Origin: a virus | Taxonomy: Duplodnaviria > Heunggongvirae > Uroviricota > Caudoviricetes | Length of the DNA stretch: 5,568 bases | Reading direction: 5' to 3' (one strand) | Virus record (IMG/VR): IMGVR_UViG_2675903504_000001 | Part shown: positions 2,245 to 5,323 of the stretch, one piece after another | Position numbering within the stretch: position 1 is the stretch's first letter | Layout of the letters: each line of letters opens with the position of its first letter | Program-made: the position numbers and the translations under genes | The notes under the pieces: generated by a model | Databases searched by the model: none | What the model saw: the letters and a program-made list of their open reading frames with translations, nothing else | Told to the model about the DNA's origin: nothing

Positions 2245-2759
2245 CAGGCTAATGCGCTTTCCTGGTCACGACGAATAACCTGTCCATAGCAGTTATTTGA
2301 ACGTATGCGGCAATCGCGCCCACCATCTTTTATCCACCAGCGAATCGCCTCGCATGCACCTTTACGATCACCGGCATTCAGCCGCTTATAAAACGTCGAC
2401 GGGAAACACTTACCGGGGCCAATGTTATAGGGACAAAATGACGCGATACCCGCTTTCTGTGGTTCGGTCAGTGGCACTTTAATATTGCGCTCCACCCATG
2501 CCAGCGCCTTATCCCGTTCAATGGCGTTAACCTGGTCGCATTTTTCCTTCGACAGTTTCATACCGGGAAAAACGGGTTTTCCATCCACCACCGTGGCACC
2601 CCGACAGATGGTCCAGATGCCGGAACCATCGCGGTATGCCGTTGTGTGGTTACCTTCTTTTTCATCCAGAAACTGGTCGAGAATATCAGGCGCAGGCGCA
2701 CCGACGGCAATCAGTGCCAGAACGGCAGCCGACAGGCCGTATCTGATTTTTGCGTTCAT
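2226..2759 (-). CDS. R: SAR (signal-anchor-release) endolysin, GH24 T4-lysozyme-like muramidase
   Basis: 177-aa ORF. N-terminus has K/R followed by a weakly hydrophobic Gly/Ala-rich segment ([18 protein letters not shown]) typical of SAR domains. Catalytic E-x8-D-x5-T triad is present ([16 protein letters not shown]). Size and context match the recalled K-12 Qin RrrQ-type lysozyme. Confidence 0.9.
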
Positions 2760-2864
2760 GGATATTTATCAGGATTTATCGGTTTCTGAACCCTGGATAT
2801 GTTTATCTGTCCCGGCCTGTTGAATCAGGCAAGGAATAGTTAAATACAATAGAGAGGATTGTTT

Positions 2865-2954
2865 ATGGACAATAGCACCATTTCTCTACAGGAGTTGCTC
2901 GACTGCATTTCCAAGCTTCGGGATGATGTAAATGCCCTTACTGTCGCATTTTAA
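2865..2954 (+). CDS. candidate small ORF (29 aa, MDNSTISLQELLDCISKLRDDVNALTVAF) on the strand opposite to the lysis genes
   Basis: ATG at 2865 is preceded by a strong SD (agagagga at 2851-2858, 6-nt spacing); stop is TAA at 2952-2954. It lies in an otherwise unexplained 340-bp gap between the DUF1327-like gene and the endolysin gene. No homology recognised and the peptide is not hydrophobic. Below the ORF-track cutoff, so speculative. Confidence 0.2.
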   Translation: MDNSTISLQELLDCISKLRDDVNALTVAF

Positions 2955-3102
2955 TATCTGGCATTCTCAATTCCCAAGGAACAAATGCAACCAACACTGG
3001 CATCGCTCCAGCTTGAATCACTCAACCCCAAATGGTCCCAGCAACAACAAAATTCTTTCAAGTGGCTGGCGGTATTACTGGAAGAAAAATATGCTGGTGA
3101 AA

Positions 3103-3447
3103 TTACCATTTCGGCGGAGTCTTCAGAGAACCAGTAATTCTTCCCGGTAGCTTTCCTTTGTAGGTTATCCACACATTCTGCGCCTCTAAAATTATGGGGC
3201 GCTTTTCCGGCGACAGCTCATCCCCTTCACATAACCCGGCAGCAACATCCAGGAAGACCTGTCTGATGCTCCTTCTGGCTGCTGCCTCATAAAACTCCAG
3301 CGCGGCACCTTCAACACGGTCCAGCGAGATGTCCAGGTCAAAAATTTCACCGTCAAAGCGTTTTTTGTCCCGTAACGCTAAAGTTACCGTAACTTTATTC
3401 TCAAAATTGCGGATCCCTTTCACAATCAGTTCATAGTTTTGAGTCAT
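3103..3447 (-). CDS. DUF1327-like (YdfR-like) prophage protein located between holin and endolysin
   Basis: 114-aa ORF starting 4 nt after the holin stop, with SD-like GGGGAGAG inside the holin 3' end. The holin - DUF1327 - lysozyme - Rz order matches the recalled essQ-ydfR-rrrQ-rzpQ order of the K-12 Qin prophage. Family assignment is by synteny and recalled N-terminal similarity, not verified. Confidence 0.55.
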   Translation of the reverse strand: MTQNYELIVKGIRNFENKVTVTLALRDKKRFDGEIFDLDISLDRVEGAALEFYEAAARRSIRQVFLDVAAGLCEGDELSPEKRPIILEAQNVWITYKGKLPGRITGSLKTPPKW

Positions 3448-3451
3448 TGAA

Positions 3452-3667
3452 TTACTCTCCCCGTGCAGCCTTACGCTTGTCTTCTTTAATCTTGAAATAA
3501 AGGTTTGTCAGGTACGTCAGCATGCCAAATACCAGGCTACCCAGCACTCCAATTGCCGCCCACTGTGAGGGCGTGACTTTATCTAGCAGCTGTAAAAACC
3601 AGTACCCGGCACTACCTGCTGAGGTGCCATAGGCGACACCCGTTGTTAACTTATCCATGGATTTCAT
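3452..3667 (-). CDS. S: class II pinholin, phage 21 S21-like (71 aa) with dual-start motif
   Basis: 71-aa ORF beginning MKSMDK (Met1 and Met4, the S21-71 antiholin / S21-68 holin dual-start arrangement). Two TMDs are present ([19 protein letters not shown] and [23 protein letters not shown]) with a charged C-terminus ([13 protein letters not shown]). Strong SD GAGGTG lies 6 nt upstream of Met1. Near-identity to phage 21 S / K-12 EssQ is recalled from memory. Confidence 0.9.
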
Positions 3668-3777: not shown

Positions 3778-3812
3778 TCAAAAAATGGAAAAACCCGCTC
3801 GACGGCGGGTTT
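3778..3812 (-). terminator. rho-independent terminator on the - strand ~110 bp upstream of the holin start
   Basis: Perfect hairpin aaacccgc/tcgacg/gcgggttt at 3791-3812 (GC core cccgc/gcggg). On the - strand RNA it is followed by UUUUUCCAUUUUUUG (complement of plus 3779-3793). On the + strand it is followed only by UUUAAGC, so it is oriented for - strand transcription. Confidence 0.5.
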
Positions 3813-4240: not shown

Positions 4241-5323
4241 ATGAAAAAATTAACAGTGGCAATTTCTGCTGTAGCTGCATCAGTACTGATGGCGATGTCT
4301 GCTCAGGCAGCTGAAATTTATAATAAAGACAGTAACAAGCTGGATCTGTACGGGAAAGTTAATGCTAAGCACTACTTCTCCTCTAATGATGCAGATGATG
4401 GTGATACTACTTATGCCCGTCTTGGCTTCAAAGGTGAAACCCAAATCAACGATCAACTGACTGGTTTCGGTCAGTGGGAATATGAATTCAAAGGCAACCG
4501 CGCTGAATCTCAAGGTTCCTCCAAAGATAAAACCCGTCTTGCCTTCGCTGGCCTGAAATTCGGTGACTACGGCTCCATCGATTATGGCCGTAACTACGGT
4601 GTAGCATACGATATTGGTGCATGGACCGACGTTCTGCCAGAATTCGGTGGCGATACCTGGACCCAAACAGATGTATTCATGACTGGTCGCACCACAGGTG
4701 TTGCAACTTATCGTAACAACGACTTCTTTGGTCTGGTTGATGGTCTGAACTTTGCTGCTCAGTATCAGGGTAAAAATGACCGCACTGACGTAACTCAAGC
4801 TAATGGTGATGGTTTCGGTTTCTCCACTACTTATGAGTATGAAGGTTTCGGCGTAGGTGCAACCTATGCTAAATCTGACCGCACTAATAATCAGGTTATC
4901 TACGGTAACAACAGCCTGAATGCATCTGGTCAAAATGCTGAAGTATGGGCAGCTGGTCTGAAATATGATGCGAACAACATCTATCTGGCTACCACCTATT
5001 CTGAAACCCAGAACATGACTGTTTTTGGTAATAACCATATTGCCAACAAAGCACAAAACTTCGAAGTAGTTGCACAATATCAGTTCGACTTCGGTCTGCG
5101 TCCGTCCGTTGCTTACCTGCAATCTAAAGGAAAAGACTTGGGTGCGTGGGGTGATCAGGACCTGGTTGAATATATTGATGTAGGTGCAACCTATTACTTC
5201 AACAAAAATATGTCCACTTTTGTTGATTACAAAATCAACCTGATTGATAAGAGCGATTTCACGAAAGCATCTGGCGTTGCTACCGATGATATCGTTGCTG
5301 TAGGTATGGTTTACCAGTTCTAA
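4241..5323 (+). CDS. nmpC: outer-membrane general porin, OmpC/OmpF/PhoE superfamily; prophage-encoded NmpC/Lc (OmpD-like) type
   Basis: 360-aa ORF with signal peptide [23 protein letters not shown] / AEIYNKD. Porin hallmarks throughout: [109 protein letters not shown], and C-terminal aromatic F (VYQF). N-terminus and overall sequence match recalled E. coli NmpC / phage PA-2 Lc. Location between the phage late regulator region and the holin matches the DLP12 quuD-nmpC-essD arrangement. Confidence 0.93.

Follow-up and report, generated by a model that had tools for sequence, protein, structure and literature searches.

In the lysis system of phage 21 (S21, R21, Rz/Rz1), neither ydfR nor the 90-codon gene discussed below, here called orf90, is to our knowledge found between S and R. 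The Qin prophage of Escherichia coli K-12 has the gene order essQ-ydfR-rrrQ-rzpQ, with ydfR (103 amino acids [aa]) overlapping the start of rrrQ (ATGA) without any spacer; translation of rrrQ would there be coupled to that of ydfR via the ATGA overlap. Morons, of which lambda bor is an example, are optional genes that intervene between conserved late genes; they often lie on the opposite strand and are active during lysogeny. Other versions of the ydfR-endolysin junction are seen in two further phages, PhiR40_1 (PV340560) and the Stx2-converting phage 86. The former encodes a YdfR of 116 aa, and a gene-free spacer of 63 nucleotides (nt) separates its ydfR from the endolysin gene; phage 86 has a 268-aa YdfR fusion and an unrelated opposite-strand gene of 104 aa at the same place.

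The window, that is, the whole 5,568-nt stretch of DNA analyzed here, comes from an E. coli lambdoid (DLP12/Qin-like) prophage and represents its late region. Its lysis genes, all on the − strand, encode an S21-type class II holin of 71 aa that begins with MKSM (3452-3667; PF04971, E value 3.2e-35), a ydfR-like (DUF1327) protein of 114 aa (3103-3447, with the stop codon at 3103-3105; PF07041, E value 4.1e-42 and 142.8 bits against a gathering cutoff of 25), an RrrQ-type lysozyme of 177 aa, which is the endolysin (2226-2759; PF00959, E value 1.4e-24), and the Rz spanin (1771-2244; PF03245, E value 2.2e-39), in whose gene an Rz1-like ORF is embedded (1824-2015). A KilA-N/ORF11CD3 gene (1072-1569, − strand) and an nmpC/ompC-like porin gene (4241-5323, + strand) are also present; relatives of this cassette carry bor just after Rz. 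All three families expected of a pinholin/SAR-endolysin system (PF04971, PF00959, and PF03245) were matched, and the SAR-type segment of the endolysin, a Gly/Ala-rich hydrophobic stretch at its N terminus, and the lipobox of the Rz1-like product (VSAC) are putative, both having been read by inspection from the sequence alone. The window resembles the phage 21 system in having a holin of the S21 family, a lysozyme with a weakly hydrophobic N-terminal segment, and an Rz gene with an embedded Rz1-like ORF, but its endolysin is of the RrrQ and not the R21 type. With Qin it shares the gene order and 87 to 92% DNA identity over the holin gene, the first two thirds of ydfR, and rrrQ (92% for the endolysin gene), whereas orf90 and the gap between ydfR and the endolysin are absent from Qin. 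The holin and ydfR-like genes are separated by 4 nt, and the start codon annotated for Rz in a homologue is a GTG that overlaps the stop codon of the endolysin (the equivalent position here is 2229), so the cassette is tightly packed except at the ydfR-endolysin junction.

At this junction, 343 nt (2760-3102) lie between the ydfR-like stop codon and the endolysin ATG (2759-2757, − strand), in agreement with a preliminary description of the sequence that reported a gap of about 340 bp in the lysis cassette, containing a Shine-Dalgarno (SD)-led 29-codon ORF on the + strand, antisense to the lysis genes. The ORF is there as described (2865-2954, with its ATG at 2865), the SD sequence AGAGAGGA (2851-2858, + strand) ending 6 nt ahead of the ATG. 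We consider it very probable that the gap consists of an opposite-strand accessory gene, orf90, which is broken in this prophage, and of the endolysin's own SD-less, AU-rich leader. The 29-codon ORF ends at a TAA (2952-2954, + strand), whereas relatives have TCA (Ser30) at this place, the difference being a C>A change at 2953. In the same frame, and separated from it by only the TAA and nine sense codons, follows a 50-codon ORF (2985-3137, + strand) that is catalogued as a 50-aa protein (P0054) and represents the C-terminal remnant of orf90; it was overlooked in the preliminary description. The complete pseudogene thus covers 2865-3137 on the + strand, 90 codons with an internal stop at codon 30 and the original stop codon at 3135-3137.

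DNA identical to positions 2700-3160 was found in three complete E. coli genomes, and RefSeq labels it (NZ_CP025842) as a pseudogene of 273 nt for a "hypothetical protein" that is interrupted by an internal stop. In 99.6%-identical genomes, including MLI110, which has the closest overall context, the same 273 nt form an intact coding sequence, WP_000370550.1. Over these 461 nt, two positions distinguish the intact allele from the window, both inside the ORF and one of them the site of the TCA>TAA change; the intact allele matches the phrog_2411 profile over positions 1 to 90 of 90 (E value 1.6e-59). WP_000370550.1 and PHROG 2411, both labeled "hypothetical protein," therefore represent the same gene as orf90, from which the window copy differs by its internal stop; the uninterrupted frame of a functional PHROG 2411 member is lost in the window through the TAA at codon 30. 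No family was found for the intact protein in Pfam, NCBIfam, or PADLOC. The exact TAA-bearing 60-mer occurs in only 4 of the 406 genomes of this subtype. The 61 codons downstream of the stop are still in frame and 99 to 100% identical to those of intact alleles, and the break must therefore be recent. One C>A change, turning the Ser30 codon TCA into TAA, was enough to kill the gene and to limit the ORF reading to its first 29 codons. Taken together, the in-frame second ORF, the pseudogene annotation, the intact 99.6%-identical relatives, and the rarity of the TAA allele identify the 29-codon ORF as a fragment of a recently broken gene. Judged by this comparison of alleles, it represents the 5' part of a gene of 90 codons that a nonsense mutation has cut and not the antisense small gene that had been suggested, and what we see is ordinary prophage decay rather than a new regulatory device.

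The part of the gap adjoining the endolysin is a leader of about 55 nt (2760-2815, − strand), SD-less and AU-rich, which is common to cassettes with and without orf90. The GATAAAT direct repeat noted earlier next to the endolysin ATG is present in two copies, an ATG-proximal one at 2764-2770 and a second one at 2774-2780 (both on the − strand), but its context is exactly GATAAAT-CCT-GATAAAT-ATCC-ATG, with 4 nt (ATCC) and not 3 in front of the ATG. A third GATAAA is located at 2802-2807. The number of GATAAAT copies is not significant (3 in the window versus about 1 expected, with 17 of 200 shuffled sequences reaching 3), and the ATAAAT part of copy 1 also occurs within the ydfR coding sequence of K-12 Qin. 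The lack of a convincing SD for the endolysin was confirmed: the start codon is preceded by CCGAUAAAUCCUGAUAAAUAUCC-AUG, with no GGAG, GAGG, or AGGA within 15 nt of the ATG and no GGAG-like element 5 to 12 nt upstream. Since the first in-frame stop codon lies 12 nt upstream of the ATG, the endolysin has no alternative upstream start, and no upstream ORF in the window ends at the endolysin ATGA. Both PhiR40_1, a phage devoid of orf90, and Stx2 phage 86, whose junction is occupied by another gene, have the same leader with the same arrangement of repeats (CCGATAAATCCTGATAAATATCC-ATG) before the endolysin, and the earlier idea that the repeats belong to an insertion is thereby refuted. These two phages also overturned the view, suggested by loci L092 and L097, that the whole 105-nt spacer, repeats included, travels with orf90.

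Nucleotide diversity among 24 distinct haplotypes was 0.026 in the leader (positions −26 to −1), compared with 0.084 at positions 1 and 2 and 0.252 at position 3 of the first 49 endolysin codons. The leader is thus about ten times less variable than the neighboring third codon positions, which indicates that it is constrained and fits the role proposed earlier for the repeat region at the endolysin start. Its predicted mean unpaired probability between −20 and +15 was 0.56, against a background of 0.42 ± 0.08, and exceeded the 90th percentile (0.52) of windows along the late RNA. The leader therefore probably matters for endolysin translation, and its most economical reading is an open, AU-rich region for SD-independent initiation. 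Initiation that depends on ribosomal protein S1 is well established, and translation of the endolysin may be initiated in such an SD-independent manner on the open AU-rich leader. The mRNA would be the Q-antiterminated late transcript, as extrapolated from lambda biology; Q-antitermination would explain how 343 untranslated nt are tolerated within the operon, and a terminator-like hairpin is found at 3812-3791, the position expected of tR'.

An alternative to such a generic AU-rich start is that the GATAAAT repeat is a specific site for a protein or small-RNA regulator gating endolysin translation. We consider this unlikely. In its favor, apart from the low variability of the leader, are the identity of the leader sequence in three cassette layouts and the properties of the upstream product, YdfR, which in K-12 is reported to bind the catalytic half of RNase E via residues 1 to 72 and to pull down RNA (PMC13232886). 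As the YdfR of the window has the same N-terminal part as that of K-12, an RNA-level role at the ydfR-endolysin junction is conceivable; the literature on DUF1327 and ydfR contained nothing on this junction. However, the repeat units range in number from one to three among relatives and contain single-base variants, Qin has just the last 10 nt of the leader, and the leader has no known partner. A candidate leader hairpin, CAGGGUU/AAUCCUG, was rejected for the lack of compensatory changes in relatives. The regulatory RNA in the gap that had also been put forward found no support, either, as no Rfam family matched the gap at an E value of ≤1 and the − strand RNA of the gap folded no better than shuffled sequences (z score of 0.16, with −1.21 for the leader), so that neither a structured cis-regulatory RNA nor a known small RNA was recognized there by these two approaches.

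Returning to orf90, this gene is convergent with ydfR, and its 3' end overlaps the last 35 nt of the latter. Homology between the window and PhiR40_1 runs to 3108 and resumes at 2815, the 292 nt in between (2816-3107) being replaced by 19 nt in PhiR40_1; this segment comprises 49 nt upstream of orf90 and orf90 codons 1 to 81, while codons 82 to 90 and the stop are the antisense of the ydfR 3' end and match the disordered tail of the predicted product. Homology with Qin breaks at 2769/2770 and resumes at 3242, so that 472 nt of the window (2770-3241) stand for 92 nt of Qin. The notion of an insertion carrying an antisense gene was therefore sound, since PhiR40_1 lacks 2816-3107 and orf90 opposes the lysis genes. 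A presence/absence pattern with such sharp boundaries and a base composition below that of the neighbors (G+C content of 0.44 in orf90 and 0.38 in its upstream spacer, compared with 0.52 in the endolysin and Rz genes) are features of morons. Like lambda bor, orf90 is optional, lies in or next to the lysis cassette, and is read against the late operon; in contrast to bor, to which it bears no sequence relation, it has no signal peptide, lipobox, or identifiable promoter or terminator.

It thus appears to be a moron-like optional gene between conserved late genes, and since it is optional and read against them, it would most likely have its own expression signals and be active outside the lysis program, probably during lysogeny. 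Neither a convincing promoter nor a terminator nor expression data were found for orf90. A sigma-70-like scan of the + strand gave no consensus match of at least 9/12 for an orf90 promoter, the weak candidates being TTATCG-16-TATGTT and TTGAAT-19-TACAAT, the latter with its end 14 nt upstream of the ATG; in the hexamer and consensus scans combined, no convincing, positionally conserved promoter was detected. Neither was a terminator-like site present on the + strand between 3137 and 3800, and a transcript from orf90 would consequently run antisense into ydfR and the holin gene.

One may ask whether the ydfR-endolysin junction is a dedicated slot for opposite-strand genes, whose products or convergent transcription could tune the lysis cassette. 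The 104-aa gene of Stx2 phage 86 (gp06) occupies the same position and is unrelated to orf90 (hhalign probability of 0.5%). An orf90 relative in Citrobacter lies on the opposite strand just upstream of a cassette with a lambda-S-type holin, CHAP, and DUF2514, and further relatives on the strand opposite their prophage neighbors are found in Yersinia and on a lambdoid contig. Possible routes of action would be the damping of leaky holin and ydfR expression in lysogens or an action together with YdfR on the SD-less leader. Nothing links orf90 to the control of the endolysin that was initially envisaged for the insertion, and we consider a tuning role of the junction quite improbable. The isolated, viable phage Chlobot and an Stx2k phage carry orf90 in place, in the same layout, which is therefore compatible with lysis.

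The distribution of orf90 points to a gene that is frequent in E. coli. It was present in 1,206 of 5,426 complete E. coli genomes, and a word-indexed search returned 64 clusters, mostly of exactly 90 aa and 68 to 100% identical, from Escherichia or Shigella wherever the source was named, apart from one partial record labeled Pseudomonas. IMG/VR gave 134 matches, and among phage records 101 had ydfR and only 3 had orf90. The frame was intact in 95 of the 101 loci fetched. Five of the other six had disabling changes at four different sites, namely, the nonsense allele of the window (two loci), nonsense mutations in codons Ser47 and Gln60, and a frameshift; the remaining locus (L098) was an extraction offset and is annotated as an intact coding sequence of 84 aa. 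One further allele had an in-frame deletion of 7 codons. Intact orf90 is present in BL21(DE3) and its derivative C41(DE3) (locus TH69_RS07140), and the gene also occurs in the derivative BL21 Star(DE3) and in Shiga-toxin phages. Outside lysis cassettes, a 90-codon copy with 71% DNA identity and an open frame lies beside the adhesin gene iha among insertion sequence (IS) remnants, and an 84-codon copy, likewise open, is carried on a 138-kb plasmid.

In the 237 nt of orf90 outside the ydfR overlap, the Nei-Gojobori (NG86) dN/dS ratio was 0.31 in the orf90 frame and 0.83 and 1.06 in the other forward frames, and the variable columns were distributed over the three orf90 codon positions as 27/21/45. 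The antisense shadow frame, which has its wobble positions in common with orf90, gave 0.22, and the dN/dS ratio alone thus makes a choice of strand impossible. All five other frames, however, have stops in divergent alleles, while that of orf90 is open at 60 to 70% protein identity and in unrelated contexts; the shadow frame, considered as a true − strand gene of the late operon, was rejected because it contains stops in every divergent lineage. Almost all divergent alleles retain the SD core GAGGA and the ATG within an otherwise variable upstream region, and the SD-led ORF is no chance feature but the beginning of a conserved gene. A dN/dS ratio of about 0.3 indicates only moderate constraint, and together with the several independent knockouts it shows that orf90 is dispensable in at least some hosts. 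We regard orf90 as a genuine protein-coding gene, moderately constrained and, in some hosts, dispensable. The conservation that had been named as a check on the small ORF thus exists, as the gap is conserved and has a coding-type pattern, but it applies only to the 90-codon gene, which in the window is a pseudogene.

Distant relatives of the orf90 product are few. An exhaustive profile search of 1.84 billion representatives yielded only 20 proteins, among them relatives of 81 to 97 aa with 25 to 47% identity that share the motif ELL..I..L....N.L..AFSYLAFS......L..T...L.FES; all of these relatives match PHROG 2411 and only that family, and Pfam, NCBIfam, and PADLOC gave no family for them. Relatives with 25 to 60% identity occur in Citrobacter, in Yersinia, and in nonphage contexts. 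As far as these collections reach, the family is almost confined to lambdoid prophages of Escherichia, and its distant relatives come from other Enterobacterales. The AlphaFold2 model of the orf90 product has helices at residues 8 to 34, 38 to 52, and 59 to 77 and a disordered tail (mean pLDDT of 80.8). At 10 kDa, acidic (pI 4.3), and without a membrane segment, signal peptide, or lipobox, the product is predicted to be a cytoplasmic three-helix protein. Comparison of the fold gave no informative structural match, a profile search against PDB sequences was empty, and no paper in the literature searched mentions the orf90 protein accessions or PHROG 2411.

That orf90 is no real gene at all, but a noncoding spacer or the template of an antisense RNA against the ydfR/holin mRNA, its open frame being an accident of close relatedness, is in our estimate very unlikely. 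Such a reading would agree with the failure to predict a promoter or a terminator, the narrowness of the family and its lack of a known domain, the similar dN/dS ratio of the shadow frame, and the antisense course of any transcript into ydfR and the holin gene. It is hard to reconcile with a frame that stays open in divergent alleles, with homologues at 25 to 47% identity in other genera, with the conserved SD and ATG, and with the confident helical model; in addition, shuffled sequences fold just as well as the − strand RNA of the gap.

The C>A change might, in principle, have been selected for a new − strand promoter driving the endolysin and spanin genes independently of Q, with the loss of orf90 as a side effect. 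A candidate promoter, TTGGGA-18-TAAAAT, is found at 2977-2948 (− strand), in which the first T of the −10 hexamer is the complement of the mutated base, intact alleles reading GAAAAT there, and the TAA allele occurs in cassettes that differ in the genes downstream (bor in NZ_CP025842, KilA-N in the window). This is a single promoter-like match, against 1.6 expected by chance in the stretch, and constitutive expression of a SAR endolysin is more likely to be harmful; moreover, the promoter-creating allele is rare, all of which makes such selection highly improbable. Still less credible is that the 29-codon ORF is a functional micropeptide or a newly evolving short gene since, even though it keeps the conserved SD and ATG and would encode most of predicted helix 1 (and only that), its truncating allele is rare, other broken alleles stop elsewhere, as random decay predicts, and the codons after the TAA are still those of a recently intact gene.

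The gene itself is not new, as orf90 is already catalogued in RefSeq and PHROGs and this allele had already been flagged as a pseudogene by an annotation pipeline. We see modest leads in the conserved leader without an SD and in the slot that repeatedly takes up opposite-strand genes. With orf90, about a fifth of the complete E. coli genomes carry a gene for an uncharacterized 10-kDa protein set against the lysis operon, and this gene survives intact even outside phages. If the junction were indeed a slot for genes that tune the cassette, it would constitute a new layer of lysis control in pinholin/SAR-endolysin phages. The strongly conserved SD-less leader of the RrrQ-type SAR endolysin, whose amount determines the death of the cell, would lend itself well to studies of SD-independent initiation in a natural setting.

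The orf90 nonsense allele was found in two cassettes that differ in their content downstream of Rz. In the window, the region 3' of Rz (806-1569, - strand) contains a KilA-N/ORF11CD3 gene together with an 89-aa ORF; in NZ_CP025842, which carries the identical orf90 allele, bor takes their place (L001, 1744-2037). Since one nonsense allele is thus shared by two differing cassette contexts, recombination is implied. Another orf90-bearing cassette (L086/L087) has a ParD-like/ParE-like toxin-antitoxin pair (1589-2123) 3' of the endolysin gene, in the usual position of Rz; no ydfR was called in this cassette, and its endolysin leader contains a single repeat unit only.

The mutation itself (position 2953) falls within a promoter-like match, TTGGGA-18-TAAAAT (2948-2977, - strand), which is directed toward the endolysin gene and is the sole such match near the gap between ydfR and that gene, a count that is not significant (1 found versus 1.6 expected). 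The complement of the mutated base is the first T of the -10 hexamer, which reads GAAAAT in the intact alleles, so that a single SNP both killed orf90 and improved the -10 hexamer.

Diverged copies of orf90, with 71 to 73% DNA identity and frames still open, were found outside any lysis cassette in E. coli PK8276 (L097, 2370-2773), where the copy adjoins iha, and in plasmid pNTEC2-42405 (L098, 2453-2736). Both lie amid IS remnants and adjoin adhesin or autotransporter genes, and a vestige of the start and leader of the endolysin gene is still attached to the iha-linked copy. Two distant relatives of orf90 have in common an upstream element, GGAGGAATGGCTGATTAACTCTG (about 3955-4000 in L100 and 3945-3988 in L105), located approximately 20 nt 5' of their start codons. 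It is composed of an SD and a 3-codon mini-ORF (ATG GCT GAT TAA) and is possibly a conserved leader element.

Upstream of the holin start, at a distance of 124 nt, there is a strong hairpin (3791-3812, - strand) that is terminator-like and consists of AAACCCGCCGTCGAGCGGGTTT and then TTCCATTTTT; a lambda tR'-like terminator of the late operon would be expected at this position. The spacer, which extends 570 nt to the porin gene, is AT-rich, with a G+C content of 0.35, and would contain pR'/qut. The holin begins with MKSM (3656-3667, - strand), the dual-start pattern known for S21, and embedded in Rz is an Rz1-like ORF (1824-2015, - strand) that has a VSAC lipobox and ends in a proline-rich tail.

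Among the cassettes, YdfR (gene at 3103-3447 in the window) is mosaic in its C-terminal third, with forms of 103, 114, 116, and 268 aa. Residues 1 to 72 of K-12 YdfR have been reported to bind RNase E at its catalytic domain, and RNA to copurify with the protein (PMC13232886). In Stx2-converting phage 86, the ydfR-endolysin junction (L110, 1501-2631) comprises the 268-aa YdfR fusion and a 104-aa gene on the opposite strand, which is unrelated to orf90 and has a similar SD context (GAGGATT). This junction appears to be a recurrent slot for genes on the opposite strand.
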